Assembly (NCBI GenBank): GCA_041394685.1
Contig: JAWKHU010000034.1
Location: 150,827-214,826, forward strand
Direction of reading: 5' to 3'
Source: Vicinamibacterales bacterium
GTDB taxonomy: Bacteria; Acidobacteriota; Vicinamibacteria; Vicinamibacterales; UBA2999
DNA: 64,000 nt
The notes below the pieces were generated by a model. That model ran no database searches and was not told the origin of the DNA. It saw only the letters and a list, made by a program, of their open reading frames with translations. Shown here one piece after another: positions 1 to 64,000 of this stretch (position 1 is its first letter; the number at the start of each line of letters is the position of its first letter). Made by a program: the position numbers and the translations under genes.

Positions 1-2413
1 GGCGAGCAGGTCGGCCGCCCGCTTGCGCTGCTGCCAGAGCGGCGCGCGGGCGCCGGGACGCCGACGCGGGAGCAGCAGGGCGCGGCCGGCGGCTTCGCGA
101 AAGCGCGCGGCAAAGAGTGCGGTGGAGCCCAGTTGCCGCACCACGAGCCCTTCGACCTCGTCGGGATCCGGGATGAAGCGGGCCGTGTCGGGCGGCTGGT
201 CGCCCTCCGGCACACGCACCACGAACCCGTCGTCGCTCCACATGACCTCGGCGTCCAGTCCGTGCTCGTCTCGCAGCTGGGCGGTGACGGCCATGGCCCA
301 CGGCGCGTGGACGCGGCTGCCGAACGGCGAGAGGACCGAGATGCGCCAGTCGCCGAGCTCGTCGGCGGTGCGCTCGACGAGAATCGTCCGATCGTCCGGG
401 ACGGCATTGGCCGCCCGCTGCTGATCCTCGAGATACTGCAGGAGGTTCTCCGCGGCGGTGCGATCCAGACCATGGCCGGATGAGAGGCGCTCGGCGGCCT
501 CGTCCGGGTCCGCCGCGCGCAGCTCGCGCGTCAGCTTTCCGATGGCGATGCCGAGCTCGATTGGGCGGCCCGGGCCTTCACCCTTCCAGAACGGCATCTT
601 GCCGGGCTCACCGGGGGCTGGCGACACGACGACGCGGTCGTGCGTGATCTGTTCGATGCGCCACGTGGACGCGCCGAGCAGGAAGGTTTCTCCCGCGCGC
701 GCCTCGAACACCATCTCCTCGTCGAGCTCGCCGACGCGCGCCTGATCGCGTTCGGCGCCGGCCAGGAACACCCCGTAGAGGCCGCGGTCGGGAATCGTGC
801 CCGCATTCGCGATGGCCACGCGCTTGGCGCCCTGGCGGGCGGTGACGGTGCCGTTCACGCGATCCAGGTCACGCGGGGGCGCAGCTCGCGAACTCGTCCG
901 ACGGGTAGCGCCCGGACAGCATGTCGAGCAGCCCCTCGAACACACGCCGGCTCAACTCCGCATAGGGGGCCGCGCCGCCGACCAGCGCGAAGAGCTCGTC
1001 CACCGTCCAGCGATCCATCGACGCGACGGCCACGACCTGCTGTGCCAGCACGTCCAGCGGGTTGCGCGGGTAGCGCGTGGGCTCCACCTGCCCGCGCTGC
1101 ATCGCGCCGGTGACGGCGGCGGCGGCGCGGGTCGCCGCGAACTTCGGGAAGATGACGCCCTCGCTCACCTCGTCGATGCGATGTCCCGACCGACCGATGC
1201 GCTGGAGCCCGCTGGCCACCGACGGCGGCGCCTCGATCTGGACGACGAGATCGATCGCGCCCATGTCGATGCCGAGCTCGAGCGAGGAGGTGGCGACGAG
1301 GCCCTTCAACCGGCCGGCCTTCAGCAGGTCCTCGATCTCGGTCCGCTGCGCGCCGCCGCGGCGACCCGTGGTGCGCCCGCACCAGCGATTCGCCCGCCAG
1401 CTCGTTCAACGCGCCGGCGAGGCGCTCCGCGAGTCGGCGGCTGTTGACGAAGAGCAGCGTCGAGCGGTGCGACCGCACCAGGTCGAGGAGACGGGGATAG
1501 ATGGACGTCCAGATGGTGTGGACGGGCGAGGCCTGCGCGGCCGGACCGCTCGGCTGCTCTACCAGGGTGCCGACCTTGGCCATGTCGGCCATGGGCACTT
1601 CGACGGTGACCGAGAGGCGCTTCGGCTCTCGCGCATCGACCACCGTGACAGGCCGGAACGACACCTCGGCGTCCGCAGCCGAAATTCTTCGTGCAGGACC
1701 CGGTCGGCGCCAGGCGCCTGGCGGCCGCGCCCCCGTCCCTTTCGTCCGGGTGCCGCCCCGCCGAGGAAGTGCGAGACCTCGTCGAGCGTGCGCTGGGTGG
1801 CTGACAACCCGATGCGCTGCACGCGTCGCCCCGCCAGCTGCTCCAGCCGCTCGAGCGAGAGCGCCAGGTGGGCCCCCCGCTTGGTGGCGACGAGCGCGTG
1901 GATCTCGTCCACGATGACGGTCTCGACCGTGCGGAGGCGGTCCCGCGCGTTGGAGGTGAGGAGCAGGAAGAGCGACTCCGGGGTGGTGATGAGGATGTCG
2001 GCCGGATCGCGTTGAAAACGCACACGTTCCGCCGCGGGGGTGTCGCCCGTGCGGATGGCGACCGACGGCACGTGCACCGGCTCACCCGTGCGGGCGGCGA
2101 CGTTGGCGATGCCGGCCAGCGGCGCGCGCAGGTTGCGCTCCACGTCCACGGCGAGCGCCTTGAGCGGCGAGATGTAGAGCACGCGACAGCGGCCCTGCGC
2201 CTCCGGCACCGGCTCGAACATGAGGCGGTCGAGGCACCAGAGGAAGGCGGTGAGCGTCTTGCCCGTGCCCGTCGGCGCGAGGATGACGGTGGAGTCGCCG
2301 CGGGCGATGACGGGCCAGCCCTCCCGCTGCGGCCGCGTGGGGCGCTCGAACACCCCGTCGAACCACTGCTGCACGGCCGGGTGGAACCGGAACCCCTTTC
2401 GCGACGCCGCCAT
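1..2413 (-). CDS. lhr: Lhr-family DEAD/DEAH-box ATP-dependent helicase. The N-terminus is complete and the C-terminus runs off the window. The frame is broken at least 3 times (about 860-890 and about 1310-1560).
   Basis: ORF 1559..2413(-) has 'APTGTGKT' and 'VDEIH'. ORF 869..1309(-) has 'QRIGRSGH'. My own minus-strand translation of 1..860 reads '...GELDEEMVFEARAGETFLLGASTWRIEQITHDRVVVSPAPGEPGKMPFWKGEG...', typical of the Lhr C-terminal region. Confidence 0.85.
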
Positions 2414-2420
2414 ACACCGC

Positions 2421-2426
2421 TATAAT
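2421..2426 (+). promoter_or_regulatory. Perfect TATAAT hexamer 9 nt upstream of ATG 2436; possible -10 box of a leaderless transcript
   Basis: 'cgcTATAATgaatgattcATG' stands out in an otherwise GC-rich context. The -35 position (ttcgcg) is weak. Confidence 0.3.
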
Positions 2427-2729: not shown

Positions 2730-5575
2730 TCAGCTCATCGCCTGCCGGAGTGCTGCTGCCATCGCCTCTGCCGTGTCCGGCCGGCTGGCTGGTGCGTAGG
2801 CGAGGGCGCGCTGCAGGACCGCCGCGACGCCCGCGGGCAATCCCGCGGTGTCGAGCGCGCGCGTGGTATCCGCCTGCCTGATCGCCACGTCCACGAACGA
2901 TCCGCCGCCAAACGGCAGGCGCCCCGTCAGCAGCTCGAACCCCATCACACCCAGGCTGTAGACGTCCGCGCGGGCGTCCACCCCTTCGCCACGCAGCTGC
3001 TCTGGCGCCATATAGGCGGGCGTGCCGACCACCGTCCCCGAGACGGTCAGCGTCCCGTCAGCCGCGCCCGGCGCCATCAGCTTGGCGACGCCGAAGTCCA
3101 GCACCTTCGGGCGCTCGTCCACTCCGGTCAGCACCACGTTCTCCGGCTTCAGATCCCGGTGCAGCACCTGCGCACGGTGCGCGGCGGCCACCGCGTCGGC
3201 CAGGCGCGTCAGCAGCCGCACGCCGGACTCCAGGGGTAGCGGCCCCTCGGTCAGGCGCGAGCGCAGGCCGGTGCCGAGCACCAGCTCCATCACGAGATAG
3301 GCGGAGCCATCCGGCAGCGACCCGTAGTCGAAGACCGTCACGATCGACGGATGCTGGAGACGCGCCGCGAGCTGCGCCTCGCGTCGGAATCGCTCCTGCG
3401 AGTCGGTCGACTGCACGAGCTCGCCTCGTACCACCTTGACGGCGACGTCGCGGTCGAGGCGCAGGTCGCGCGCCCGGTACACCGCGCCCATGCCGCCGCG
3501 CCCGAGCAGCGCGTCCACGCGGTACTTGCCGTCAACCGTCGTGCCGACGTGCAGCCCCCCGCCGGACCACGAGGCGATCGTGGCCGCCTGGCCCACGTCG
3601 TGCACCGGCGTTGACGCCGCCTGCCGCCGCAGCCGCCACAGATCCGCGGCCAGTCCCATCTGGCGAGCGCGATGCCTCCGAGCAGCACGCGGTCTTCCTT
3701 GCTGAACGGTTCCTCCGAGCGCTTGGGGCCGAGGGCGACGATGCCCACGAGGGGCGGTCCGTGCCGCTGCCGGCGAGGACCGGCAGCAGCGCGGCGCCAG
3801 TGGCGGCGAGCCACTCGCGGTCGGACGCCGGCAGCCGTGCGATGGGCGAGCGGTCGTCCTCCAGCGTCACTTCCAGCGGCTCGTCCGACCAGCGCAGCAG
3901 TTGCGCCAGTCCGCCCGTGGACGTCAGCGCCAGCCTCTGGCCCCGTGGTGCGGACGGTCATGAAGGCGCCCTGTTCGTTGTCGGCCAGCACGGCGGCCCA
4001 TTCGGGGTGCAGCGCCGTGTCGAGATCGTCGAGGACCCGCGGACCAGCGCTCGCGGGTCGGCTTCCGCGGGCACGCGGCTGGCCAGGGCCAGCAGGATGC
4101 CGCGCGCGTCCGTGCTCCGTGCGGAAGAAGCGCCGGTCGGCCACTGGCGCGCACGCTCGCCGCTTGCGCAGGCTGACGTGAGGAGAGCAGGAGCGGTGAC
4201 GTAGAAGAGCGGCTGTCCGCTCACGATGGCGGCCAGCGGTTGGTCGCGGCCTGCAGGGCGAGAAATGGCGAGCAGCACGCCGGGCAGCGCCATCAGGATC
4301 GCGAGCGTTCGGCGTGCCAGCGCGTATTGCAGGCCCTGGCGCAGTGCGGTGCGCGGGCTGAGCGCGCGGCGGACCGCTACCGACCAGGCCAGCCCCACCG
4401 CCGAGAGCAGCACGAGCAGGTAGGAACATCGCGACGGGCCACGGCCAGCGGAGCGGCGTCTCGACGAGGGCTCCGGCGACCGGCGGCACCGTGAGCAGGG
4501 TGTAGGCGGCCACCGCCGGGCACGGCCGTGATCACCATGGTCTCGAGGCGGCGCCGCTCGGCCGCATCGGGGTTCCGCTTGTAGCGCCGCACGCCGTCCG
4601 GCCACGATGCCGTTGGTCGTGAGGCCGACGCCGAAGCAGGCCGAACACCCACGGGCGTTCGGCCACCCACGACACCAGGCCGCCGGCCACGCCGGCCGAC
4701 CAGGAATGCCGAGGCGGCCAGGCCGATGGCCGCCAGCGGCGCTGGGGCGACGCACAGCGCCGTCGGCACCCATGGCCGGTGGTCCAGCCACTCCGCCCGG
4801 CGGGGCACGTGCAGGACGGCGAGGGCGATGATCGGGAACGACAGCGGCAAGGGCCAGCCACGTGAAGCCGAGCAGCAGGGGGACAGCAGTCCGACGCGCC
4901 GTTCCGCGCCCAGCAGCAGCCCCGCGTCGGTGACGCCCATCAACAGGAATGCCGCCGTCAGCAGCGTGGCGGCGCGTCCGCAGGCGCCGAGGGCGATGAC
5001 CAGCAGCGCGGCCAGCGTGTAGAAGAGGTGCTTGGCCAGCGGGCCGAGGTGATATTCCCGCAGCCAGAGGCCGATGGTGGCGGCGTCGAGCGACCACACC
5101 GGCGGACGATCGACCACGACGCGCCGCCCTGGCTGCCCGGCCTCGTCGTCCACGTGGAGGACGAGGGGACCGGTCGGCGACAGCGCATACATCCGGCGCC
5201 AGAGGTCGAGGGCGTCACTCGAGCGTGCCGGCAGCGTGTCGCCGAACTCCACGCGATGGCCGGTGTCGTCCTCGACGGCGCGCACGTGATCGCCCGGGCT
5301 CAATCCCGCCCGTGCCGCCGCGCCGCCGGGCTGGATGCGCACCGATCGTCACCGGCGTGCCGAGCGAGGTCCGCGGATCGAAGGCAGGCTCGGCGCGCTG
5401 ATGGCCGACGGCTCCGCCAGCGCCGCCATGACGGCGCCGCCCGACAGCACGAAGCCGCCGCCCGCCGGCCAGAGGCGCGGCCGCAGGACGACGGCCGGAG
5501 CACGAAGGCCATCACCGACAGCGCGGCCACGAGCACCGTGGCGCCGCGCAGGACCGTGCGCGTCACAAAGGCCAC
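2730..5575 (-). CDS. Large membrane sensor protein with a C-terminal Hanks-type Ser/Thr kinase domain (TM - PDZ-like - multi-TM - GAF-like - kinase); many frame breaks
   Basis: ORF 2730..3659(-) carries 'GRGGMGAVYRA', 'AVKV', 'HRDLKPENVVL', 'DFG' and 'GTPAYMAPE'. Upstream frames give 'MAFVTRTVLRGATVLVAALSVMAF', the PDZ-like 'GGAAARAGLSPGDHVRAVEDD', TM helices, and a GAF-like end 'GPKRSEEPFSKEDRVLLGGIAL' that abuts 'MGLAADLWRLRRQ'. Confidence 0.7.
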
Positions 5576-7109: not shown

Positions 7110-7177
7110 TTTGTTCATTCCTTCACAAGCACGCCCGTGCGCGCTTGTCACATTGGGTTATTGAGGCGATTGAGCAC

Positions 7178-7595
7178 ATGGAAGGTTGGGCCGGCGTTGC
7201 GCTGATGGTGCTGCTGGGGGCCACGGTCGGCCTCGGCGGGCTCGTCATTTCCGGGCTTGTCGGGCCCAAGAATCCCACCCCCGAAAAGGAAGCGGCCTAC
7301 GAGTGCGGCATGCCGCCGGTGGGCGACGCGCGCGAGCGGCAGTCGGTGAAGTTCTACCTGATTGCCATGATCTTCCTGCTGTTCGACATCGAGGTCGCCT
7401 TCCTGTATCCCTGGGCCATGGCGATGCGCGAGCTGTCGTGGACGGGGCTCCTGCAGATCACCGTGTTCTTCGCCATCCTGGTGGTCGGCTACGTGTATAT
7501 CTGGCGGAAGGGGGTCCTCGACTGGGGCCCCGAGTCGGATCCCGACTACAAGCACGCCCCGCCGCCCGGACCGGCTGTCGTGAAGAGGTATCGCT

Positions 7596-7612
<17 letters not shown>
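7178..7612 (+). CDS. nuoA: NADH-quinone oxidoreductase subunit A
   Basis: '[19 protein letters not shown]...[23 protein letters not shown]'. ATG 7178 is preferred over the TTG at 7145 in the ORF track. Confidence 0.9.
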
Positions 7613-8089
<477 letters not shown>

Positions 8090-8093
<4 letters not shown>

Positions 8094-8650
8094 GCGCGGC
8101 CGACCTGATTGCGGCCCTGGGCGCGGTGGTGCCGGGCGCCGAGTACGAGGCCCTGGAGGCCGTTGACTCCGACGTCACGCCCGTCCTGCTCGTGCCGGCG
8201 GCGCACCTGTTCGAGACGTGCCGTGCGCTGCAGTCCGCGCCGGGGCTCGAGTTTCGTGCGTTCTCGGACGTGACGGCCACCGATTACTACCCGCAGCGCG
8301 AGCCGCGATTCGAGATCGTGTATCACCTCGTGTCGCCGCACCGGCGCGCGCGCGTGCGCCTGAAGGTGCGCGTGGGCAAGGACGAACCGATGGCCTCGGT
8401 GACGCCCATCTGGGCCGGGGCGGCGTGGATGGAGCGCGAGGTGTACGACCTCTTCGGGATCGTGTTCGAGGGACATCCCGACCTGCGGCGCCTGATGATG
8501 CCCGACGACTGGGAGGGGCATCCGCTGCGGAAGGACTACCCGGTGCAGCTGCGGAAGGACGCGACGACCTACATGCCGCTGCAGGTGTCGGAGGAGGAGT
8601 TCCGGGCCAATCTCGAGCGCGACCGGCAGATACGGCCGCGCCCGCACTGA
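8090..8650 (+). CDS. nuoC: NADH-quinone oxidoreductase subunit C
   Basis: ATG 8090 overlaps the nuoB TGA. 'FEIVYHLVS...RVRLKV...[33 protein letters not shown]'. Confidence 0.9.
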
Positions 8651-8655
8651 CGCCG

Positions 8656-9228
8656 ATGGACGGCCCCGCGCGCGCGGCGGCGGGCCTGCTCCGGCAGGCC
8701 GCGAGCGTGCACGAGGCCGCGGCCGAGGTGTGTGCGGAACCGATTGCGGCCGCCGCCGCACTGGTGAGCCGGGCGCTGGCGGCCGGCGGGCATGTGCTGG
8801 CGTTCGGCAACGGCGGCAGCGCCGCCGACGCGCAGCACTTCGTCGCGGAGCTGGTCGGACGGTTCGACGCGCGGCGCAACCGGCGGGCGCTGGCGGCCGT
8901 GGCGCTGGCGTCGGACCCGAGCGTGATGACGGCACTGGCCAACGACCTGGGGTTCGACCAGGTCTTCGCGCGCCAGGTCGAAGCGCTCGGGAGGCCGGGC
9001 GACGTGGCGCTGGGGCTCACGACCAGCGGCCGCTCGCCGAACGTGCTGGCCGCGCTGACCGCCGCGCGGGCGCGCGGGATGGCGACGGTGGCGCTGACCG
9101 GGCGCGCGGGCGTCCCGGTGGCGGTGGATGTGCACGTGGCGGTGCCGGACGATCGGACGCCGCGGGTGCAGGAGGTGCACGGCACGCTGTTGCACGTCCT
9201 GTGTGAGTTGGTCGAGGAAGGACTGTAG
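8656..9228 (+). CDS. gmhA: SIS-domain D-sedoheptulose-7-phosphate isomerase (GmhA-like) embedded in the nuo operon
   Basis: 'FGNGGSAADAQHFVAELVGRF...ALASDPSVMTALANDLGFDQVFARQVEALGRPGDVALGLTTSGRSPNVLAALTAARARGMATVALTG'. Confidence 0.8.
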   Translation: MDGPARAAAGLLRQAASVHEAAAEVCAEPIAAAAALVSRALAAGGHVLAFGNGGSAADAQHFVAELVGRFDARRNRRALAAVALASDPSVMTALANDLGFDQVFARQVEALGRPGDVALGLTTSGRSPNVLAALTAARARGMATVALTGRAGVPVAVDVHVAVPDDRTPRVQEVHGTLLHVLCELVEEGL

Positions 9229-9235
9229 AGGATGG

Positions 9236-9338
9236 ACACCACGACGTCACGGACGTCGCGGAGGCCTGGCGGACGGGATGGGGCTGAATCCCCCCGTTGC
9301 CCGTCGTGCCCTTCGCGCTCCGTCGTGCCCTTCGTGGT
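9236..9338. repeat. Short inverted/direct repeat block of the CACGA(A/C)G(G) / CCCTTCGTG family between gmhA and nuoD
   Basis: 'caccacgacgtcacggacgtcgcggagg' is followed by 'cgtcgtgcccttcgcgctccgtcgtgcccttcgtgg'. Confidence 0.6.
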
Positions 9339-9353
9339 TTCCTGTGACGTCTG

Positions 9354-10535
9354 ATGGCTGAACTGCGCACCGAAACCATGACGGTGAACATGGGGCCCCA
9401 GCATCCCAGCACGCACGGCGTGCTGCGGCTCGTGCTGGAGCTCGATGGCGAAACCGTCGTCTCCGTCAGCCCCACCATCGGCTTCCTGCACACCGGCATC
9501 GAGAAGACGGCCGAGCAGAAGAAGTGGCAGCAGGTGATCCCGCTCGTCGAGCGCATGGACTACCTGGGCGCCCAGTCGAACAGCCTGGCGTTCTGCCTCT
9601 CGGTGGAGAAGCTGCTGGGCATCACGACGCCCGACCGCGTCACCGCCATCCGCGTGCTGATCGCCGAGCTGCAGCGCATCAGCAGCCACCTGGTGTGGTT
9701 CGGCACCCACGCCATGGAAATCGGCGCGGTGACCGGCATGCTCTACGCCTTCCGCGAGCGCGAGATTCTGATGAATCTCAACGAGATGCTCGCCGGCTTC
9801 CGGTTCTTCCCCAGCTACATCCGCGTCGGCGGCCTGCGCGACGACATCCCGCGCGGCTTCAAGGAAGCCGTCACGGCGTTCCTCGATCGCTTCCCCGGCA
9901 AGCTCGACGAGTACGAGACGCTGATCACCAAGAACCCGATCTGGCTGGAGCGCACGCGCGGCGTCGGCGTCATCACGCTCGACGACTGCTACCAGTGGGG
10001 GCTGTTCGGGCCCATCTCGCGCGCGGCCGGCGGCGACTACGACGTCCGCCGCGCCTTCCCGTACCTGGACTACGAAACCTACGACTTCGACGTCATCGGC
10101 GCCAGCAACGGCGACGTCTACGACCGCTATCTCGTGCGCGTGGCCGAGATGCGCGAGAGCGCCAAGATCTGCCGGCAGGCGCTCGAGCGGATCACGCCGG
10201 TGGGGGAGTGGGCGGTGAACGACCGCCGCATCGTGCCGCCGCCGAAGGACGAGGTGTACACGGAGATGGAAGCGCTCATCCAGCACTTCCTGATCTACTC
10301 GCAGGGGTTCACGGTGCCGCCCGGCGACGCCTACGTGCCGGTCGAGGGGCCGCGCGGCGAGCACGGCTGCTACGTCGTGTCGGACGGCAGCAACCGGCCG
10401 TGGCGCGTGCACATGCGCTCGCCCGGCCTCATGGCCTGCCAGGCCCTGCACAAGTTCATCGTCGGGGGCATGATCGCGGACGTCATCGCGGTCATCGGTT
10501 CGCTCGACGTCGTGATGGGGGACGTGGATCGATGA
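9354..10535 (+). CDS. nuoD: NADH-quinone oxidoreductase subunit D
   Basis: 'MTVNMGPQHPSTHGVLRLVLELDGE...' Intact 393-aa ORF. Confidence 0.95.
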   Translation: MAELRTETMTVNMGPQHPSTHGVLRLVLELDGETVVSVSPTIGFLHTGIEKTAEQKKWQQVIPLVERMDYLGAQSNSLAFCLSVEKLLGITTPDRVTAIRVLIAELQRISSHLVWFGTHAMEIGAVTGMLYAFREREILMNLNEMLAGFRFFPSYIRVGGLRDDIPRGFKEAVTAFLDRFPGKLDEYETLITKNPIWLERTRGVGVITLDDCYQWGLFGPISRAAGGDYDVRRAFPYLDYETYDFDVIGASNGDVYDRYLVRVAEMRESAKICRQALERITPVGEWAVNDRRIVPPPKDEVYTEMEALIQHFLIYSQGFTVPPGDAYVPVEGPRGEHGCYVVSDGSNRPWRVHMRSPGLMACQALHKFIVGGMIADVIAVIGSLDVVMGDVDR

Positions 10536-12493
10536 GTTTCCATCCCGCCATGCCGTACGGCACGGAGCAGTGGCACCGCTCGCAGCGGGTCACGCTGCCC
10601 GAGGGGCCGGAGTTCGTGTTCACGCCGGAGAACCGGCAGCGGTTCGAGGACTTCGCCGCACACTACGAGCCCGGGCAGCGGCGCTCCGCCGTGCTCCATG
10701 CGCTGTACCTGGCGCAGGAACAGCAGGGCTACATCACCGCCAACGCGGCGCGTCACGTGGCCGAGGTCGTCGGCTGCACCACCGCCGACGTCGAGGACGT
10801 GGTGTCCTACTACGTGATGTTCCACCGCACGCCGGTGGGTACCTTCGTGCTGCAGGTCTGCACCACGCTCTCCTGCGCCCTCGCCGGCGCCGAGCGGGTC
10901 GTCGAGGAACTGGAGCAGAAGCTCGGCATCAAGCGCGGGGAGACGGACCCGACCGGCATGTTCACCATCATGCCGATGGAGTGCCTGGGCGCGTGCGACA
11001 AGGCGCCCGTGGTGATGGTCAACAACGACCACTGGCACGAGTGCCAGACGCCGGACGGCACCGGCGCCCTCGTGGACCGCATCAAGGCCGACGGGCTGAA
11101 GGCCCTCTCCGGCTGCCACCTCGACATCGAGCACCTGCCCGAGAGCGCGTACGCGGGCAAGACCACGACGCCGGTGAAGCCGAAGGCCGTGCCCGACTAC
11201 GAGCCGGTGCTCACCAAGTACGCCTTCACCAAGGGCGGCAACACGCTGGAGCACTACCAGCAGCACCAGCAGGGCTACGAGGGCTTGAAGAAGGCGCTGG
11301 CCATGGCGCCCGAGGCCGTCATCGAAGAGGTGAAGAAGTCGGGCCTGCGCGGCCGCGGCGGCGCCGGCTTCCCGACGGGCCTCAAGTGGCAGTTCGTGGA
11401 CAAGAAGTCGCCCAAGCCGAAGTACATCGTCTGCAACGCCGACGAGAGCGAGCCCGGCACCTTCAAGGACCATCTCCTCATGGAGCGCAACCCCCACCTG
11501 CTGGTGGAGGGGTGCCTGATCGGCTGCTACGCCATCGGCTCGAAGGCCGCCTACATCTACATCCGCGGCGAGTTCTACCACCTGTTCCCCGTCCTGCAGA
11601 AGGCAATCGACGATGCGCGCGCGGCGGGCCTGGTGGGAACCAACATCCTGGGCAGCGGCTTCGACTGCGAGGTCTACCTGCACCGCGGCGCCGGCGCATA
11701 CGAGGCGGGCGAGGAGACGGCGCTGCTCGAATCGCTCGAAGGCAAGCGCGCGCAGCCGCGCTACAAGCCTCCCTTCCCGGCGGTGGCCGGCGCGTGGGGC
11801 TGCCCGACGGCGGTCAACAACGTCGAGACGCTCTGCAACGTGCCGCTCGTGATGACGCGCGGCTCGGAGTGGTATGCGGCGCTCGGGCCCGAGAAGAACG
11901 GCGGCCCGAAGCTCTTCTGCGTCAGCGGCCACGTGAAGAACCCGGGCGTCTTCGAGGCGCCGATGAAGGTGACGCTCAAGGAGCTCATCTTCGACTACGC
12001 GGGCGGCGTGCGCGACGGCCATACGCTCAAGGGCGTCATTCCCGGCGGCTCGTCGGTGCCGATCCTCATGCCCGACCAGCTCGACATCCCGGCCAGCTTC
12101 GACGATGTGCAGAAGGCGGGGTCGCTGCTGGGCTCGGCCGCCATCATGGCCTTCGACGAGACCACCGACATCGTCTGGCTGGCGGAGAACCTGCTGCACT
12201 TCTACATGCACGAGTCGTGCGGCAAGTGCACGCCGTGCCGCGAGGGCACGCACTGGCTCTACCGGCTGCTGCAGCGCATGCTGGGCGGGCAGGGCACGGC
12301 GCGGGACATCGCGCTGCTCCAGAGCGTGGCGTCCCAGATCAACGGCAAGACCCTGTGCGCCTTCGGCGACGCGGCCGCCACCCCGGTGCTGACCACGCTC
12401 AAGTGGTTCCGGTCCGAGTTCGAGGCCTACGCGAAGGGTGACGTGCCCGCGCCGGCCGACTACCGCGCTCGCCAGCCCGTGGAGACGCACTGA
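10532..12493 (+). CDS. nuoEF: Fused NADH-quinone oxidoreductase subunits E and F in a single ORF
   Basis: One open frame. The NuoE part has 'VCTTLSCALAG...MECLGACDKAPVVMVN'. A linker of about 30 aa follows ('LDIEHLPESAYAGKTTTPVKPKAVPDYEP'). The NuoF part has 'GLRGRGGAGFPTGLKW', 'EPGTFKD' and 'ESCGKCTPCREG'. Confidence 0.85.
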   Translation: MSFHPAMPYGTEQWHRSQRVTLPEGPEFVFTPENRQRFEDFAAHYEPGQRRSAVLHALYLAQEQQGYITANAARHVAEVVGCTTADVEDVVSYYVMFHRTPVGTFVLQVCTTLSCALAGAERVVEELEQKLGIKRGETDPTGMFTIMPMECLGACDKAPVVMVNNDHWHECQTPDGTGALVDRIKADGLKALSGCHLDIEHLPESAYAGKTTTPVKPKAVPDYEPVLTKYAFTKGGNTLEHYQQHQQGYEGLKKALAMAPEAVIEEVKKSGLRGRGGAGFPTGLKWQFVDKKSPKPKYIVCNADESEPGTFKDHLLMERNPHLLVEGCLIGCYAIGSKAAYIYIRGEFYHLFPVLQKAIDDARAAGLVGTNILGSGFDCEVYLHRGAGAYEAGEETALLESLEGKRAQPRYKPPFPAVAGAWGCPTAVNNVETLCNVPLVMTRGSEWYAALGPEKNGGPKLFCVSGHVKNPGVFEAPMKVTLKELIFDYAGGVRDGHTLKGVIPGGSSVPILMPDQLDIPASFDDVQKAGSLLGSAAIMAFDETTDIVWLAENLLHFYMHESCGKCTPCREGTHWLYRLLQRMLGGQGTARDIALLQSVASQINGKTLCAFGDAAATPVLTTLKWFRSEFEAYAKGDVPAPADYRARQPVETH

Positions 12494-12494
12494 G

Positions 12495-13544
12495 ATGAGC
12501 GCCGTCCTCGACTGGCTCACGGCCCCGCAGACGATCTTCTTCTTCGGCGTGGCCATGGTCGTCTTCATGGGGCTGCAGATCTCCGCAGCCGTCTTCGTGT
12601 ACGCCGAGCGCAAGGTGTCGGCGTTCATGCAGCAGCGCTACGGCCCCTACCTGGTCGGACCGAAGGGGCTCCTCCAGCCCATCGCCGACATCGTCAAGCT
12701 GGTCTTCAAGGAAGAGCTGAAGCCGAAAGCCGCCGACACGCTGCTCTTCGCGGCGGCCCCGGTGATCTCGGCGGTGGCGGCGTTCGCGGCGTTCGCGCCG
12801 GTGCCCTTCGGCGGGTCCACGACCTTCTTCGGCCTGCTGCCGGAGCCCATGCCGCTGCAGGTGGCGGACATCAACGTCGCCGTGCTGGTGATCTTCGCCG
12901 TCACCTCGATGGGCGTCTACGGCATCGTGCTGGCGGGATGGGCGAGCAACTCCAAGTACTCGCTGCTCGGGGGCCTGCGCAGCTCCACGCAGATGATCAG
13001 CTACGAGCTGGCGTACGGCATGGCGCTGGCCACGGTGGTGATGATTGCCGGGTCGCTGTCGCTGCGCGAGATCGTGGACAGCCAGGCGGGCTACTGGTTC
13101 GGGTTCATCCCCCGGTACTACGCCTTCCTCAACCCGATCAGCTTCTTCGTCTTCACGGTGGCGGGCATCGCCGAAACCAACCGCGCGCCCTTCGACTTCC
13201 CGGAAGCGGAGCAGGAGCTGGTGGCCGGCTATCACACCGAGTACAGCTCGATGCGCTTCGCGCTGTTCTTCCTGGCCGAGTACATCAACATGGTCACGGT
13301 CGCGGCCGTGGCGACGAACCTGTACCTGGGCGGCTGGCACGGCCCGTTCCTGCCGGACTACCTGGGCTGGGTGTGGTTCCTCGTCAAGCTGTCGGCGCTC
13401 TGTTTCGGCTACCTGTGGATCCGGTGGACGCTGCCGCGGTTCCGCTACGACCAGCTCATGTCGTTCGGCTGGAAGGTGCTGCTGCCGCTGGCGACCGTCA
13501 ACCTGCTCCTGAGCGCGGCGGGGGTGCTCTACTTTGGGCTTTGA
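12495..13544 (+). CDS. nuoH: NADH-quinone oxidoreductase subunit H
   Basis: 'AERKVSAFMQQRYGPYLVGPKGLLQPIADIVKLVFKEE' and 'ETNRAPFDFPEAEQELVAGYHTEYS'. It starts 2 nt after the nuoEF stop. Confidence 0.95.
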   Translation: MSAVLDWLTAPQTIFFFGVAMVVFMGLQISAAVFVYAERKVSAFMQQRYGPYLVGPKGLLQPIADIVKLVFKEELKPKAADTLLFAAAPVISAVAAFAAFAPVPFGGSTTFFGLLPEPMPLQVADINVAVLVIFAVTSMGVYGIVLAGWASNSKYSLLGGLRSSTQMISYELAYGMALATVVMIAGSLSLREIVDSQAGYWFGFIPRYYAFLNPISFFVFTVAGIAETNRAPFDFPEAEQELVAGYHTEYSSMRFALFFLAEYINMVTVAAVATNLYLGGWHGPFLPDYLGWVWFLVKLSALCFGYLWIRWTLPRFRYDQLMSFGWKVLLPLATVNLLLSAAGVLYFGL

Positions 13545-48507: not shown

Positions 48508-51433
48508 ATGGCGTTTGGCGCGCGGCTCTCATCCTTGCTTCGAGTCTTGTCTTCACGCTGAGCAGCACGGCTGTCGCACAGCAGCGTGGCGTGGTCTCGG
48601 GGCGTGTGTTCGATCCGGCGGGCCTGACCCTGCCCGGCGCGACGGTCGTGGTGACCAACGAAGCCACCGGCTTCACGCGCGAGGCGGTCACGGCCGAGAA
48701 CGGCGCCTACTGGTGCCCAATCTCGAGCCGGGCACCTACGCGGTCACGGTGACGATGACGGGATCGGGACCGCATCGCGCACGGCCTCCAGCTCCTCCCC
48801 GGCGCCACCGTCACGCTCGAGCTCAAGATGCAGGTGGCCGCGTCGAGGAGAACCTCGTCGTCACCGCCGAGTCACCGCTGGTCGAGCGGTCGAGCAACCA
48901 GATTGGCGGCAGCCTGTCGAGGCGCGAGATCGAGGAAGTCCCCCTCGAACTTCCGCAACTTCACCGGGCTGACGCAGCTCATCCCCGGCATGACGCCCAA
49001 CCCGGCGCAGTCGACCTTCGAAGGCGGCGGTGGTGGCCAACGGGTCGCCGTCCCAGCAGAACGTCTGCCTGCTCGACGGCATACAACAACGACGATCGCC
49101 CTCGGCGGCAGCCAGGACGCGGTGCGCGTGGTGCTCGACAACATCGAGGGGCCCAGGTGCTGGCCAACCAGTACAGCGCGAGTGCGGCAGCGGCGCCGGC
49201 GCCATCATCAACATGGTGACGCGTGGCGGCACCAACGCCCTTCGCGGCCGCGCCTACTCGTACTTCCGCGACGATGCGCTGAACTCGCGCGCCATCTTCC
49301 TGCCTGACGACCAGCCCAAGCCGCCCGAGCGCACGCTGCAGGCCGGCTTCGGCCTCGGGGGCCCGATCGTCCGGAACCGCGCGCACTTTTACTTCACCTA
49401 CGAGCGGGACAACGAAGACCTGGCCGGCCAGAAGAACTTCCCGGCTGCGGCGGCGCCACTGGCCGTCGACCAGGTCGGGTTCTTCACCGTGCGCGCCAAC
49501 AACTACTTCGCACGCGGCGACCTCCAGCTCGACGACCGCAACTTCCTCTCAACGTGCGCTGGCTGCTCGAGACCGCCGCGTCGCGCGGGGAGGGCTTCAA
49601 CACCAACAACGAGACGCCGGATGCGCGCGTCTGGGAGAGCGACTGGGATCACCTCATCAGCGGGACCTACACCAGCGTGCTCACCGACCGGCTGTCCAGC
49701 GTCACGCGCTTCGGCCGCATCGGCGAGAGCTGACCACGGCGCCCGAGGGCTTCTTCAACGACAGCGGCGAGGCGGTCGGCTTCGACGGCCGCGATCCGTT
49801 CTCGATCGGCCAGAGAAACGTCCACCCCAGCTACATCACGGGCACGGGCGGCAGCGGCCCGACCACCGTGATCCGCACCTGGGTGCTCGACCAGGCGTTC
49901 AGCTACTTCGTGCCCCAGCTGCTGGGTGGCGAGCACACGTTCAAGTTCGGCGGCGGCGTCAGCCTCAACAACATGGATCCGCGGTCGACGTTCGACTCCG
50001 GCACCTTCCAGTTCCGCACCGACGCGCCCTACAACCCCGCTGATCCGTCCACCTACCTGTTCCAGTTCGACGTGACCGTCGGCCCGCAGGACCGTACGGC
50101 TATGCGGTGACGTCCAAGGACGTCCGGCGCTACGCCTTCGTCGAGGACAAGTGGAGCGCGGCCGGTAACCTCACCCTGACCCTGGGCCTGCGCTGGGACA
50201 ACCATCGCCAGACGCCGAACCACGACACGGCGTTCGCGCCTCGCGCGGGGTTCGCGTGGGACGTGTTCGGCTCCGGCCGCACCGTCGTCCGCGGCGGCGT
50301 CGGCAAGTTCTACGCGTATGTGCCCGTCGTGCACGACCTCACGCTCAAGCAGAGCGCCGTGCGCACGCTCTTCCCCAGCATCTCGGTCAACGCGGCGAAC
50401 CCGCTGGCCAGCGTGATCCTGGCGCCGGATCTGATCACGGACACGCAGGGCAACCTCGGCGTGGCACAGCTGTCGCCGGCCGGGCAGGCGGCGCTCAACC
50501 TGCTGCGCGATCAGGTGATTGCCGGGTCCGCGTTCAACCGCAATCCGCGCATCGACAGCCCGGACCGCCGGATGCCGCATACGTGGTCCTGGAGCGCCGG
50601 TGTCAGCCAGGAGCTCTTCCGGCAGATGGCCCTGTCGGTGGACTACGTCGCCAATGCCTCGCGCGACCAGCTCGGCGTCGTCGACATCAACGAACCCGTC
50701 AACGGTGTCCGGCCCGGCGTGGCGGTCTTCGACCCGAACGGGACGCTCATCCCGGCTGAAGCGCGTGACGTCAACTTCCTGCGCGTGCTGCAGTCGCAGA
50801 CCAACCCGCTCTTCAACGGCGACTACAAGTCGCTCCAGGTGTCGCTGGTGAAGCGCATGGCCAACCGGTGGAGCGGCCGCGTCGCCTACACGGTCCAGCG
50901 CAGCAACTACGTCGGCACCGGCAACCCGGACGCCCGCCGCGTGTGGCTCGACAACGACATTCGTGCCGACTACGGCCGGTTCCAGTTCAACCGCACGCAC
51001 GTGTTCGCCGGCAGCGCCAGCGTCAACCCCTGGCGGTCGCTGACCATTGCCACGGTGATCAGCGCCATCAGCGGCGCGCCCATCAACGAGACGGTCGGTC
51101 GTGACGTCAACGGCGACCTCGACAACAACGATCGTCCCATCGCGGGCGTGGACGACCTGAACATGGCCATCCGCTCGCCACTGGACAGCCAGGGTCGCGC
51201 GGTCATCTTCGGGCTCGACGGCCCCGGCTCGTTCACCGTGGACCTCTCGGCCCGCTACCAGCTCCCGCTGGGCGGACGGCTCGAGAGCCTGGACCTGTTC
51301 TTCGACGTGTTCAACATCTTCAATCGGCTCAACGAGGTGGCGCCCACCGGCAACCGCCAGTCGCCCAACTTCCTGGTGGCGACCTCGGCGAACTTCCCGC
51401 GCCAGTCGCAGATTGGCCTGCGCCTCCTTCTGA
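48508..51433 (+). CDS. TonB-dependent receptor-like outer-membrane protein with an N-terminal CarboxypepD_reg domain (many frame breaks)
   Basis: GAAGGAG Shine-Dalgarno then ATG 48508. Signal 'ALILASSLVFTLSSTAVAQQ', 'GVVSGRVFDPAGLTLPGATVVVTNEATGFTREAVTAENGAY', beta-barrel segments in ORFs 49030.. and 50107.., and a terminal 'QIGLRL(S/L)F*' after a 1-nt correction. Confidence 0.75.
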
Positions 51434-51448: not shown

Positions 51449-52380
51449 ATGACACGCGTGCTTCGCGGCGGTGGTGACGGCGCTCCTGGCAAGCGCCGTT
51501 CCGGCCTTGGCCCAGATGGAACTGGGCGTCATCAGGGGCGGGTGGTCGATCAGGACAGGAAGCCGATCGACGGGGTCACGATCCGCCTCGTGAACATCGA
51601 TCGCGGGCGCGAGGTGACGCTGAAGACGGACAAGGACGGCCGCTTCTATCGCCGCGCCCTCCAGGCCGTCGAGTACAGATGACCGTCGAGCGCGACGGCT
51701 ACCAGTCGATCAGCGACACCATCAAGCTCGTCGCCGGCACGGATCGGGACTTCGACTTCACGCTGGCGAAAGCCGCCGCCGGGCTCGAAGGAGCTCAGGC
51801 CGGCGTCGAGGCCTTCAACGCCGGCCGCTTCCAGGATGCGGCCGGGCAGTTCGAAGCCGCCATCGCGCAGTCGCCGTCCGTCCCCGCGCTGCACGTGAAC
51901 CTCGCCATGGCCTACCTCCGGTTGAACCGGCTGCCCGACGCGGTGGCCAGCCTGGAGAAAGCGGCCTCGCTCGGCTCCAACGATCCCGCGGTCCAGTACC
52001 AGCTCGGCAGCGCCTACGTGGACATGCAGGAGTACGACAAGGCGGCGGCCGCACTGGAGAAAGGGCTCGCGAAGGCCCCCGACCTTGGCACCGATGTCCT
52101 CGCGCGGCAGGCGGCGTCCACACTGGGCGCCGTGTACTTCGCGCAGGGGAAGGTGGCCGACGCCGAACGCCAGTTCCAGCGCGTGCTGGCCGCCAGTGCC
52201 GGTGACGCCGGCGCGACGCTGGGGATGGCCAAGGTCCACTTCAGCAAGGGCGAGGTGGACCAGGCGCTGAAGCTGTTCGAGCAGGTGGCCGCGCAGCACC
52301 CGGGTACGCCGGAGGCAACGCAGGCGGCCACGTTCATCAAGGAACTTCGCAAGGACCCTGCGGAAGGAGGCCGGCCGTGA
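51449..52380 (+). CDS. Secreted CarboxypepD_reg-like domain plus TPR repeat protein (frame breaks in the first ~240 nt)
   Basis: Signal 'FAAVVTALLASAVPALAQ', 'RVVDQDRKPIDGVTIRLVNIDRGREVTLKTDKDGRFY', then ORF 51679..52380 with TPR-like repeats. Confidence 0.65.
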
Positions 52381-54997: not shown

Positions 54998-56663
54998 ATG
55001 CGGATCTCGCGCTTCTTCCGGCGACCGCAACCGATGGTCCTGGCCATCGTGGCCACCATCGGCGCCACGGGACTGGTCCTCTACCTGCAGCACCGCTCGA
55101 TCACGGCGCTCAGGTCGCAGACCGAGGTGATCCTCCGGCAGGTCAGCAACAATGCGGCCGCGGAGATTGCGGTCGAGCTGCGCCGGGTCATGGACGGCCC
55201 GGTCTTCGACACGCTCACCGCGGTCAACCACCCGGAACTGCGCGAGGGCCGGCTCGACCTCGTGGCCGACCACTACGCCAAGGGGCTCGTCGCCTACCCG
55301 CACGTCGATCGCTTCTTCGTCTGGAACGAGGACACCGAGCGCCGCTCGCCGGGGGAGGCGGTCTTCTTCGGGCGGAGCGGGCAGTTCGCGCGCGATCCCG
55401 CTCTCGGCCGCGCCATCATGGCCCTGGCGCGCAAGTATCGGCCGACACAGCACATCTACGTCGCGGCCGAAGGGCTGGGCGACGAGGGGCAATACCAGGC
55501 GTTCCTGCGCCTGTTCTGGACCGACGCGCGGCGCGTCGAGTACTTCGCCGTGCTGGGGTTCGTCGTCGATCGGACGGCGCTGCAGGGGCGGCTGTTCGAC
55601 GAGGCCGGCGTCGCGAGGCTCGAGGCGCTGCTCGCGCGCCAGGAGGGCGACGTGCCGCTGCAGTTCCGCGTCACCGACGAGACCGGCGCCGTCGTCTGCG
55701 ACACGCTGTCCGAGGAGGCCGTCCGCAGCACCACCCCGGTGGACATGCTCTTCTATCCGGTCAACGACATCCGCTCGCGCCTGGCGGCGGGCGTTGACCC
55801 GCGGCAGTGGACCATCGAGGTCGGCGCGCCGCTGCTGGGCGGCACCTTCGCGGGGGTGAGCGGGGGATATGGCCCGACGCTGCTGTCGGTGGTGCTGATG
55901 ATGGTGGCCCTCGCGCTGACGCTGCAGGCGAGCCGCCGTGCCGCGGACCTGGCACGGATGCAGGCGGACTTCGTCTCGCACGTCTCGCACCAGCTCAAGA
56001 CGCCGCTCTCGCTGCTCAGCACGGCGGCGGAGACGCTGCACCTGGACCGCGTCCGCTCGCCGGAGAAGTTCGCCTCCTACCTGGAGACGATCCGCACCGA
56101 GGTGTCGCGCCTGTCGATGCTGGTGCAGCGCGTGCTGGAGTTCTCCAGGCTGCAGCAGCGCAGCTTCGAGTTCGAGGCGGTGGACCTGCCGGCCCGGCCC
56201 GGGAGACGGTGGCGGCCTTCGCGCGCGGCCTGCCGGACCGGCGCTTCCGCTTCACCGGCGGCGGCGCCGGCCCCGTGATCGTGTGCGCCGATCCAGCGGC
56301 GCTGGAGCAGGCGCTCGCCAACCTGCTGGACAACGCCGTCAAGTGCTCCGAGGCTGACACCGAGGTCGTCGTCCGGACGTTCGCGGACCTGCGGACCGCG
56401 ACCATGGAGGTCGTCGATCGCGGTGCGGGCATCGACCCGGCAGACCAGGCGCGCGTGTTCGACCGGTTCTATCGCGGCACGGCAGGCACGTGCCGGCCGG
56501 GCTTCAGGCTCGGTCTCACCATCGTTCGCGACCTGATCCAGGCGCGGGGCGTGGTCGAACTGCAGAGCGTGCGCGGCATCGGCACGACGTTCCGGATCAG
56601 GCTGCCGCGCAGCCGGCCGAACGGGCGCCGGCGCGCGCCGACATCCGGGAGGACGTCGCATGA
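54998..56663 (+). CDS. Sensor histidine kinase (frameshift near 56190 and another near 56600)
   Basis: H-box 'FVSHVSHQLKTPLSLL', N-box 'ALANLLDNAVKCS', 'VVDRGAGIDPADQARVFDRFYRG' and 'GLGLTIVRDLIQ'-like 'RLGLTIVRDL'. TGA 56661..56663 is reached after a 1-nt correction. Confidence 0.75.
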
Positions 56664-57362
56664 TTCGCGAGGTGGTGCGTCACGATCGGTGCGGCACGTC
56701 ATGGTCATCGAGGACGAGCCGCAGATGCGGTCGATGCTCATCGACAACCTCGAGTTCGAGGGCTACAAGGTGACCGCGGTCTCGTCTGGCGAGGAAGCGC
56801 TCAGCGCCTTTGCGCGCGACGCCTTCGCGCTGCTGCTCGTGGACGTGATGCTGCCGGGCATGAGCGGCTTCGACGTGTGCCAGCGCCTGCGCGAGCGCGG
56901 CGCGGGCGTCCCGATCATCGTGCTGACGGCCAGGGCGCACGAGCGCGACCGCGTGCGGGGCCTCGACCTCGGGGCCGACGACTACGTGAGCAAGCCCTTC
57001 AGCGTGCGCGAGCTCCTCGCGCGCGTCCGCGCCAGTGCGCCGTGACGACCGCAGCCTGATGGAAGGCGACCAGTTCGCCTTCGGCGACGTGGTGGTCAAG
57101 CTGCGGCAGCGGCTGGTGACACGGCGCGGCCACCGGGTGGCGCTCTCGGCGAGAGAGTTCGAACTGCTGCGGTATCTCTTCGTACCGCAACGAAGTGGTC
57201 AGCCGCGAGCAGCTGCTGCGCGACGTCTGGGGCTACCACGAGCTGGCGATCACCCGGACCGTGGACAACTACATCGCCAAGCTGCGGAACCACCTCGAGC
57301 CCGGCCCCACGACCCCGCTTCATCGTCACCGTGCACGGCAGCGGTACCAGCTGCTCATCTGA
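56660..57362 (+). CDS. OmpR/PhoB-family response regulator (frame breaks)
   Basis: GGGAGGA Shine-Dalgarno, and ATG 56660 overlapping the kinase TGA. 'VMVIEDEPQMRSMLIDNLEFEGYKV...LLLVDVMLPGMSGFDVCQRLR...IIVLTARAHERDRVRGLDLGADDYVSKPFSVRELLARV'. The winged-helix part is 'LSAREFELLRYLF...REQLLRDVWGY...RTVDNYIAKLR'. Confidence 0.8.
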
Positions 57363-57382: not shown

Positions 57383-58423
57383 CTAGCCGTTGCGCCCTCC
57401 GTGCTCTTCGTGCCCTTCGTGCCCTCCGTGCCCTTCGTGCACTTCGTGGCTCAGTTCGGCGGCGCTGACGGTCGCCGCGCCGAACCGGCCGACGACGATG
57501 CCGGCGGCGACGTTGGCGAGGCCGGCGGCCTCGGCGATCCCGGCCCCGGCGGCCATGGCGAGCGCCAGCGTGGCGATGACGGTGTCGCCCGCGCCGGTCA
57601 CGTCCGAGACCTCGCGCGCCGCGGCGGCAAGCGATCCCTCGCCATCCGCGTGGCTGAGCCACATGCCGCGCTCGCCGAGCGTGACGAGCACCCCCTCGAC
57701 GCCCGCGCGGCTCAGCAGCGACCGCGCGACCTCACGCGCATCGTCCACCGTGCGGATGCGGCGCCCGGCGGCGGCCTCCGCCTCCATCTGGTTGGGCGTG
57801 ACCAGGGTGGCGCCCCGGTAGAAGTCCAGGTGCGGCACCTTGGGATCCACGAGCAGGGGGATGCCGGCGTCGGTTGACCGGGCCACCAGGTGCGCCATGA
57901 CGCGCCGGGTGACGACGCCCTTCTGGTAGTCGGAGACGAGCAGGGCGCCCGCACCGTCGGTGTCCGTCCACCACCGCCATGATGGCGTCCTCGGCCTCGG
58001 TCCCGAGGTCCGCGTCCGTCTCGTAGTCGATGCGGGCCACCTGCTGGTTGCGCGTCGTGACGATGCGGGCCTTGGAGTGGTGCGGCGGTCGGGGACCGTG
58101 ACCAGGCCTGACGTCGAAGCCCGGCGGCCGTCATGGCCTCCGACAGCCGCGACGTCGTCGTCCTCGCCGACGACGCCCACGAGCGTGGCATGGCCGCCGA
58201 GCGCGGCGATGTTGTGGGCGACGTTGGCGGCGCCGCCGAGGCGGTAGTCGTCGTGGTCGTAGACAACGACCGGAACCGGGGCTTCCGGCGAGATGCGGCT
58301 GACGCGCCCGACGAGGAACCGATCGAGCATGACGTCGCCGATGACGAGGACGCGGCCGGCCGGGAACTGGCCGATCAGGCGGGTGGCGCGCGCCGGATCG
58401 AGCGCGGGCAGCGTCGGGCCCAT
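57383..58423 (-). CDS. hldA: D-glycero-beta-D-manno-heptose-7-phosphate kinase (RfaE domain I type, pfkB family); internal compensated frame breaks; His/Glu/Gly tail
   Basis: 'VLVIGDVMLDRFLVGRVSRISPEAPVPVV...RLGGAANVAHNIAALGG', 'LLVDPK', 'LVTPNQMEAE' and 'DVTGAGDTVIATLALAMAAG'. The tail is 'HEVHEGHGGHEGHEEHGG'. Confidence 0.8.
   Translation of the reverse strand: MGPTLPALDPARATRLIGQFPAGRVLVIGDVMLDRFLVGRVSRISPEAPVPVVVYDHDDYRLGGAANVAHNIAALGGHATLVGVVGEDDDVAAVGGHDGRRASTSGLVTVPDRRTTPRPASSRRATSRWPASTTRRTRTSGPRPRTPSWRWWTDTDGAGALLVSDYQKGVVTRRVMAHLVARSTDAGIPLLVDPKVPHLDFYRGATLVTPNQMEAEAAAGRRIRTVDDAREVARSLLSRAGVEGVLVTLGERGMWLSHADGEGSLAAAAREVSDVTGAGDTVIATLALAMAAGAGIAEAAGLANVAAGIVVGRFGAATVSAAELSHEVHEGHGGHEGHEEHGGRNG
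57394..57450. repeat. CCCTTCGTG-type 9-nt microsatellite. It is G-rich CACGAAGGG on the minus, sense strand of the heptose kinase gene and encodes its C-terminal tail.
   Basis: 'gccctccgtgctcttcgtgcccttcgtgccctccgtgcccttcgtgcacttcgtggc'. Confidence 0.9.
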
Positions 58424-62899: not shown

Positions 62900-63674
62900 C
62901 CGAGCGGCCGGCGCCATCGTCGCCGCTGCGCTGTTCTCCGGCGCCTGTGCCGCCCGCCTGCCGCCGCGGCCGTCCGGTGCCGCCACCCCCGCTCCGGATG
63001 CACTGGAACTCTTCACCCGAGCCACCGCACACTGCGAGGGCCTGCGGACGATGACCTCCGAGCTCTCGCTGTCTGGGCATGCGGGCGACGAGCGCCTGCG
63101 CGGCCGCGTCATTGCCGGCCTCGAACGCGGCGGCCGTGCCCGGCTCGAGGGGGTCGCGCCGTTCGGGGCACCCATCTTCATCCTGGCCGCACGCGACGAG
63201 CGCGCGACGCTCCTGCTGCCGCGCGACCGACGGGTTCTGCAGGATGCCGCCGTCGGCGCCGTGATCGAGCGGCTGACGGGGCTGCCGCTCGGCGCCGACG
63301 ACCTGCGCGGCGTGCTGGCCGGGTGCCCCGGCGCGGGCGCGGCGCAGGAGGGGCGTTCGTGGCCTGGCGGCTGGCGGGCGGTCGGCATCGGCGATGGGCG
63401 CACGGCGTTCCTGCGCGAGCGCAGCGGCCAGTGGACGGTGGTGGCGGTCGATGCCGGCGCCTGGCGCGCCGACTACGCCACGGTCGTCAACGGCTACCCG
63501 CGCGAGGTGCGCCTCCGCACGACCGACGGCGCCGTGGACGTGATCGCCCGCGTGGCGCAGCTCGAGGTCAACACCGACATCGACGCGGCGGCGTTCGACG
63601 TCGAGGTGCCGCCCGGGACCGAGCCCATGACGCTCGACGAGCTCCGCTCGGTGGCGCCGCTGCGGACGCCATGA
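62880..63674 (+). CDS. LolB-like outer-membrane lipoprotein (DUF4292-type)
   Basis: Lipobox 'ALFSGAC', a size of about 260 aa, and a position immediately upstream of ispE with an ATGA overlap. Confidence 0.5.
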   Translation: MRAAAASRAAGAIVAAALFSGACAARLPPRPSGAATPAPDALELFTRATAHCEGLRTMTSELSLSGHAGDERLRGRVIAGLERGGRARLEGVAPFGAPIFILAARDERATLLLPRDRRVLQDAAVGAVIERLTGLPLGADDLRGVLAGCPGAGAAQEGRSWPGGWRAVGIGDGRTAFLRERSGQWTVVAVDAGAWRADYATVVNGYPREVRLRTTDGAVDVIARVAQLEVNTDIDAAAFDVEVPPGTEPMTLDELRSVAPLRTP

Positions 63675-64000
63675 CGCTGACACTTCCGGCCTGCGCCAAG
63701 GTGAACCTCGATCTGCGGGTGCTGGGCGTGCGCCCGGACGGGTATCACGACCTTCGCACGGTCTTTCAGTCCGTGGCGCTGGCCGACCAGGTCACGCTGG
63801 CCGAGTCGCGCGGCCCGCTGGTCCTCACGTGCGACGACCCGCGCGTGCCCACGGACCGCCGGAACCTGGCGTGGAAAGCGGCCTCGCTGCTGTGGCGGCT
63901 GGCGCGGCTGGGGCGCGGGGCGCCCCGGGGCGTCCGCATTCACCTGGCGAAGCGGATCCCGGCGGAGGCGGGCCTGGGCGGCGGCAGCGCGGACGCGGCG
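63671..64000 (+). CDS. ispE: 4-(cytidine 5'-diphospho)-2-C-methyl-D-erythritol kinase, 5' part (runs off the window)
   Basis: 'LPACAKVNLDLRVLGVRPDGYHDLRTVFQSVALADQV...NLAWKAA...IHLAKRIPAEAGLGGGSADAA'. Confidence 0.9.
   Translation, partial: MTLTLPACAKVNLDLRVLGVRPDGYHDLRTVFQSVALADQVTLAESRGPLVLTCDDPRVPTDRRNLAWKAASLLWRLARLGRGAPRGVRIHLAKRIPAEAGLGGGSADAA

Follow-up and report, generated by a model that had tools for sequence, protein, structure and literature searches.

Frame breaks in a Vicinamibacterales genome bin are most probably consensus indel errors of its assembly

Results

Many genes are interrupted by changes of reading frame in a 64,000-nt stretch of a Vicinamibacterales genome bin, G000. 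The stretch, referred to below as the window, is G000:C34:150827-214826, and the genes affected include the helicase gene lhr, the complex I genes nuoL, nuoM and nuoN, purH, selA and the integron integrase gene intI. We consider it highly probable, from the assembled sequence and its comparison with related genomes, that these frame breaks are consensus indel errors in the assembly as deposited rather than gene decay, and that in the living organism lhr, nuoL, nuoM, nuoN, purH, selA and the other genes are very probably intact. An earlier note on this stretch had listed the breaks and favored the same reading over pseudogenisation. With tblastn, nucleotide alignments, Pfam profiles and a codon-usage hidden Markov model (HMM), the breaks were found at, or a few bases from, the places where that note had put them, and the comparison with close relatives that it had suggested showed the breaks to be private to G000, with the relatives reading through in one frame. 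Its preference for an artefact is now backed by the occurrence of breaks genome-wide, by damage to valS, metG and the 23S rRNA, by the ratio of nonsynonymous to synonymous substitution rates (dN/dS), by the rarity of nonsense changes, and by a link between break density and assembly type.

Frame breaks across the genome bin and its congeners

The bin holds 6.26 Mb in 150 contigs (N50 154 kb, 70.4% G+C), with an estimated completeness of 75% and contamination of 0.8%. The nearest genomes, used as comparators, are congeners with about 80-85% DNA identity to it. Intact open reading frames (ORFs) of congeners were used as tblastn queries against the window, and colinear matches that changed frame were read as breaks; local multiple nucleotide alignments with the congeners were used to resolve breaks to indels, and Pfam profiles to trace domains running across frames. 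The HMM was trained on long G000 ORFs and has seven states, one non-coding and one for each of the six frames, with stops forbidden within the coding states. A break in this model is a frame switch on the same strand without a nearby stop in the old frame, called under strict and loose criteria. For nuoL and nuoM, the HMM positions fall within 3 bases of those given by tblastn.

In the window, the HMM changed frame on the same strand, with no stop, about 46 times, corresponding to about 92 per 100 kb of coding sequence, and 17 of 51 gene-like units were broken, as were 34% of such units genome-wide. Within the 5.41 Mb of coding sequence of the whole bin there were 1,735 strict and 3,313 loose breaks, or about one per 1.6-3 kb; the loose density is 61 per 100 kb coding, and among the 38 contigs that reach 50 kb or more the strict criteria give a median of 32 per 100 kb. 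As controls we used congeners with fragmented assemblies, in which the loose criteria gave 4.8 breaks per 100 kb coding in G017 (331 kb coding tested), 1.9 in G015 (54 kb), 3.0 in G001 (66 kb) and 6.6 in G003 (46 kb), with no break in the 6.6 kb tested of G016. Retraining the HMM on each genome in turn, done for four control genomes, gave the same picture. With 2-7 breaks per 100 kb in fragmented congeners and about 92 in the window, chance does not explain the signal, and the low control densities indicate that roughly nine in ten of the G000 events are real breaks of frame in the record.

Types of indel at the breaks

Nineteen window breaks were resolved against the congeners, and all are private small indels in otherwise conserved DNA. 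Deletions make up 14 of them (ten of 1 nt and four of 2 nt) and insertions 5 (three of 1 nt and two of 2 nt), and substitutions directly adjoin several of the indels. The breaks had been described beforehand as single-base, which suits thirteen of the nineteen; the other six involve 2 nt. They had also been said to lie often in short homopolymers. Runs of at least four bases are indeed enriched, accounting for 8 of the 39 1-nt indels that could be placed precisely across the genome (coding sequence and 23S rRNA) against about 3-6% of bases, yet these are a minority, and 18 of the 39 sit at a non-repeated base. Around some 1,670 HMM break sites, a run of at least four was present within 15 nt on either side in 20% of cases, compared with a background of 15%. 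Runs of at least eight are about nine-fold rarer in G000 than in G017, which is a weak hint at run compression. Besides homopolymers, short tandem repeats seem error-prone in this assembly. The purH deletion sits in a GCCGCCGCC trinucleotide run at 48275-48290 of the window.

Two more specific sources of error were considered and rejected. Two deletions adjoin TCGAC, as an error tied to a methylation motif might produce, but k-mer enrichment at the 1,670 sites revealed no such motif: the most enriched word was AATGC (4-fold, n = 27), and only rare words containing A or T were enriched. Failure of polishing that depends on G+C content was set aside when break density and local G+C gave a Spearman coefficient of 0.02.

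The spectrum also bears on recoding, that is, programmed ribosomal frameshifting or transcriptional slippage that would restore the proteins from split genes. Some breaks adjoin short runs, and beyond this nothing specific favors it. The sites share no common slippery motif, with k-mer enrichment at most 4-fold; the shifts go in both directions (957 net -1 and 778 net +1 genome-wide by HMM) and include 2-nt indels; and rRNA is affected as well. The split architecture is not conserved either, as the congeners use one frame, and the metagenome relatives of nuoM that have enough flanking sequence, 49 in number, all keep one frame through both of its break sites (the best of them has 84% protein identity, and the set speaks to the reading frame of relatives only). 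We give recoding practically no credence.

Ribosomal RNA, essential genes and selection

Damage of the same kind is found in the 23S rRNA of G000 (C51:78055-81030). At alignment columns on which four congeners agree, it departs from them by 24 private indel events and 66 private substitutions; in the congeners, the number of private indel columns is 0-8. Its match to the Rfam model reaches 2642 bits, 200-250 bits lower than the 2848-2898 bits of the congeners. Some of the deletions fall in stretches that we take to be universally conserved, for example CAACGGATAAAAGG and GAAGCCCCGGTAAACGG, and it is very unlikely that a working ribosome would tolerate these changes. Among single-copy essential genes, valS is divided among three open frames (275, 165 and 116 aa) and metG between two (459 and 281 aa), each of these genes being one frame in the congeners; ileS and leuS are intact. 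The genes valS and metG were taken in place of rpoB, which is missing from the assembly (no match to Pfam PF00562 and no tblastn hit with congener RpoB). The absence of rpoB means that part of the missing 25% of completeness is truly unassembled sequence and not only the effect of frameshifts, although the 75% estimate is probably lowered in part by frameshifts. The earlier note had argued from the implausibility of losing complex I, purH and selA together. That conclusion holds on the evidence of valS, metG and rRNA, but complex I itself makes a weaker case than was claimed, because it may be redundant: the congeners possess a second nuo cluster, and part of such a cluster lies on contig C3 of G000.

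Coding sequence beyond the breaks appears to have stayed under selection. The HMM coding signal carries on in the new frame after breaks, and dN/dS against congeners, a check that had been proposed for the broken genes, was 0.20 after the break and 0.24 in the segments before it, compared with 0.22 for genes that have no break, with no sign of relaxation; with dS to the comparators at about 0.65, the test is blind to very recent events. In the alignments that gave 27 frameshifts there were only one or two credible nonsense changes, the remaining apparent in-frame stops being upstream non-coding sequence or spurious frames, and no excess of larger deletions accompanied the frameshifts in the alignments examined.

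These results weigh on the view that the indels are real and fixed in the population, the product of a genuine and very recent mass pseudogenisation in a hypermutator or a lineage undergoing reductive evolution. The breaks are truly present in the deposited record, and events far more recent than the split from the comparators would escape the dN/dS test. Against this stand about 3,300 breaks in a third of gene-like units, including valS, metG and the 23S rRNA, which we judge to be incompatible with a living cell; that many simultaneous, very recent inactivations are not credible. Coding signal still spans 86% of the 6.26-Mb genome, neither nonsense changes nor larger deletions are in excess, break density follows assembly contiguity in unrelated congeners, and one contig of the bin (C64) has no strict break. 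In true decay, as in the recently host-restricted Mycobacterium leprae and Sodalis, many genes are interrupted, and to this extent G000 is similar. There, however, essential genes and rRNA remain intact, nonsense changes and deletions occur alongside the frameshifts, and selection is relaxed. G000 shows none of these marks: the expected sparing of essential genes and rRNA is not seen, and neither is relaxed selection. We regard mass pseudogenisation as extremely improbable. Only slightly less improbable is the reading that all or a large part of the indels are genuine, which would mean a free-living soil acidobacterium caught at the onset of genome-wide decay or hypermutation, or that their patchy distribution reflects real local tracts of hypermutation in place of fluctuating depth.

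Break density, assembly type and patchiness

Break density varies with the kind of assembly. Among the congeners, the few-contig assemblies G009 (10 contigs, 58% "complete"), G012 (20 contigs) and G013 (4 contigs) have 12-220 breaks per 100 kb, and the many-contig assemblies have 0-7, where the number of contigs is a stand-in for assembly or sequencing type and not the actual platform of each genome. In G009, rpoB and ileS are split, and TGA stops lie within valS.

Within G000 the breaks are patchy. The index of dispersion in 5-kb bins is 2.8, with 249 empty bins against 75 expected, and 35% of the distances between breaks are below 300 nt against 16% expected. Patches measure 2-8 kb. In the window, broken patches cover 1-5.5, 15.4-22, 36-38.8, 40.8-45.2, 48.3-51.7 and 56.2-58.1 kb, and clean ones 5.8-15.4, 51.7-56.2 and 58.4-64 kb. 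Patches of this size would fit local fluctuation in long-read depth or partial polishing. The contig without strict breaks, C64 (61,041 nt), has 55.7 kb of coding sequence, in which about 18 would be expected; it is the only such large contig, and over its first 45 kb the loose criteria find no break either. C64 may have had higher depth, for example as a multicopy element or because it stems from a sister population of greater abundance; another possibility is that it came into the bin from elsewhere. C64 has 71.3% G+C, and its tetranucleotide profile correlates with that of the big contigs at 0.991, compared with about 0.996 for others.

We propose that the contigs were most likely assembled from long reads with a high error rate, at a depth that was low and uneven and with no polishing to good effect, and that small indels of 1-3 nt, mostly deletions and mixed with substitutions, would have been left in the consensus. 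Both the long-read platform and the cause of the patchiness, be it local depth or partial polishing, are what we infer from the pattern.

Known artefacts and points on the other side

Errors of this type have been described. Residual indels in metagenome-assembled genomes (MAGs) from nanopore reads truncate ORFs, and frameshift errors depress completeness; frameshift-aware correction, which made the greatest difference at low coverage, brought it from about 85% up to 94-95% (PMC8103633); a dedicated frameshift-correction tool, proovframe, is available (bioRxiv 10.1101/2021.08.23.457338). G000 resembles such genomes in that small indels split ORFs throughout, with homology continuing in the neighboring frame, and in having more predicted fragments and a lower completeness estimate, an effect known to be stronger at low depth. 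It differs from nanopore MAGs in that homopolymers account for only about a fifth of its placed 1-nt indels and that a third of its resolved window breaks are 2-nt. Counts of spurious pseudogenes have likewise been found to vary with assembler, platform and coverage (Cooley and Wright 2024, PMC11017572). Here, too, the load follows the assembly, with congeners of one genus differing 10- to 30-fold, although that study put the emphasis on internal stops as its proxy, and in G000 frameshifts dominate and credible internal stops are rare. The breaks are a known type of artefact and no new biology.

Several points count against attributing the breaks to the assembly. This attribution is itself drawn from the assembled sequence and from comparisons with it, and as the comparators are only about 80-85% identical, no single break can be proved to be an error. 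Classic nanopore error profiles show a stronger homopolymer bias than G000 does. Finally, G013 is 95% complete and still has many breaks, which makes completeness an imperfect proxy.

If the breaks are consensus errors, as we think highly probable, then gene calls in G000, along with its "pseudogenes", its apparent "fusions" and odd C-terminal extensions such as those of nuoN and purH, need to be read with the frame in mind. The few-contig species representatives G009, G012 and G013 share the problem, and counts of gene presence or "decay" across the genus are accordingly biased by assembly type. A check of the 23S rRNA combined with a codon-usage HMM and congener controls offers a means of spotting such assemblies that needs no reads.

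Broken and unbroken genes of the window

The features of the window are collected in Table 1.

Table 1. Frame breaks and one unbroken stretch in the window, with position, strand and evidence (positions are those of the window; "switch" is an HMM frame switch)
Feature	Position	Strand	Break and evidence
lhr helicase	864-890	-	Two private 1-nt deletions about 25 nt apart; tblastn jump 864-875
lhr	1351-1362	-	Private 1-nt insertion; tblastn and alignment
lhr, third frame jump	1658-1682	-	tblastn with three congener ORFs; switch at 1674
Large Ser/Thr kinase	3662-4700	-	At least three frames; about 8 switches; Pkinase domain found
nuo genes upstream of nuoL (clean contrast stretch)	7160-14359	+	No frame break over 7.2 kb
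nuoL	15451	+	Private 1-nt deletion at a non-repeated base; GCGTA-TCGAC vs GCGTACTCGAC
nuoM	16830-16836	+	1-nt deletion
nuoM	17699-17704	+	1-nt insertion and neighboring substitutions; TCATGCCCAG vs TCGTA-CCAG
nuoN	19737	+	1-nt deletion 12 codons before the normal stop; open frame extended to 19976
Sodium:dicarboxylate symporter	20712-20914	+	About 3-4 switches; Pfam SDF 1-175 and 248-383 in different frames
intI	22080-22129	-	Break between SAM-like N-domain (Phage_int_SAM_4) and catalytic Phage_integrase domain, in different frames
Integron cassette gene, RyR domain	28422-28648	+	Two overlapping frames; profile 1-59 and 44-87 in separate ORFs
Integron cassette gene, PRiA4_ORF3-like	31325-31500	+	Split near 31412; profile 2-30 (weak, E 0.0096) and 31-100
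MFS transporter ("ampG")	36007-36053	-	1-nt deletion and 2-nt insertion 43 nt apart; tblastn 36007, 36050
Two genes, including MDR-type oxidoreductase	37131-38646	+	About 6 switches; ADH_N_2, ADH_N and ADH_zinc_N in three frames (weak pieces)
Fe-alcohol dehydrogenase (Fe-ADH)	40892-41642	-	About 4 switches; 2-nt deletion at 41535; tblastn, Pfam, alignment
Amidohydrolase ("D-aminoacylase")	42812-43151	-	Two switches (42812, 43151); HMM only
selA	43985-44322	-	About 4 switches; 1-nt insertion at 44322; SelA profile 1-200 and 236-261 in different frames
purH	48283-48284	+	2-nt deletion within GCCGCCGCC repeat; alignment vs five congeners
TonB-dependent-receptor-like outer membrane protein	48707-50095	+	At least 8 switches; tblastn jumps 49548, 49726, 50085
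CarboxypepD_reg-TPR protein	51676-51678	+	1-nt deletion, GTAC-AGATG; tblastn and alignment
Histidine kinase	56186-56190	+	Switch ahead of HATPase_c domain; HMM (next old-frame stop 88 nt off) and Pfam
Response regulator	57035-57183	+	Two private 2-nt deletions (57035, 57182); tblastn and alignment
Further gene	57965-58076	-	Two switches; HMM only

In lhr, the two neighboring deletions appear as GCGAT-CCAGG and AGCTC-GCGAA in the alignment with five congeners, and the WH_Lhr domain is divided between frames (Pfam positions 87-168 and 2-76). The kinase is covered by a single 957-aa ORF of G001, which matches 5495-4515 in frame -3, 4419-3757 in frame -2 and 3662-2739 in frame -3 again. Three breaks of the TonB-type receptor were resolved, the first as a 2-nt insertion (49550) and the other two as 1-nt deletions (49728 and 50095), and the Pfam profile of this protein runs from one frame into the next. 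In purH, both upstream domains are intact, and the deletion exchanges the conserved C-terminus for other sequence and leaves the frame open as far as 48430; this extension and that of nuoN are products of the same errors. Two of the genes previously listed as broken fared differently. The GT1 gene, thought to carry a compensated pair of shifts, matches a 449-residue congener ORF from residue 3 to residue 448 without a change of frame. The D-aminoacylase gene has its two HMM switches, but Pfam shows one piece only (Amidohydro_3 383-471, the end of the profile), the other pieces having no match.

The integron genes deserve separate treatment. One could suppose that the breaks are mostly artefact and that a sizeable minority of those in the window, in intI, the cassettes and accessory genes, are true inactivations. 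Decay is common among the integrases and cassette genes of chromosomal integrons, and the congeners offer no counterpart of intI or of the cassettes by which an indel could be polarised. On the other hand, 0.6-0.9 detectable errors per kb predict one or two breaks in any 1-kb gene, and the breaks of intI and the cassettes are indistinguishable from those of nuoL, nuoM and nuoN. We consider a sizeable minority of true inactivations to be very unlikely. For intI itself, with its domains in different frames, error and true pseudogene cannot be told apart from this record because there is no congener counterpart to compare, as the earlier note had said of its functional status. Nor does the record allow any statement on the intactness of the cassettes or of any other gene here.

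In the nuo genes upstream of nuoL, the HMM sees only natural gene boundaries, with a stop within 0-19 nt. Congeners carry two or three nuo clusters. In G000, a fragment of a second cluster is found on the 8.2-kb contig C3, at about 71-687 and about 4783, where the nuoL-like stretch is 80% identical to the window nuoL and the nuoD-like gene has a 1-nt insertion of its own. The spacer after nuoN, at 19772-20095, has at least 10 other matches in G000 (on C32, C35, C39, C48 and C55, on both strands) with 76-88% identity over 55-134 nt. The spacer also has matches at many places in the congener G011, and it belongs to a dispersed family of intergenic repeats.

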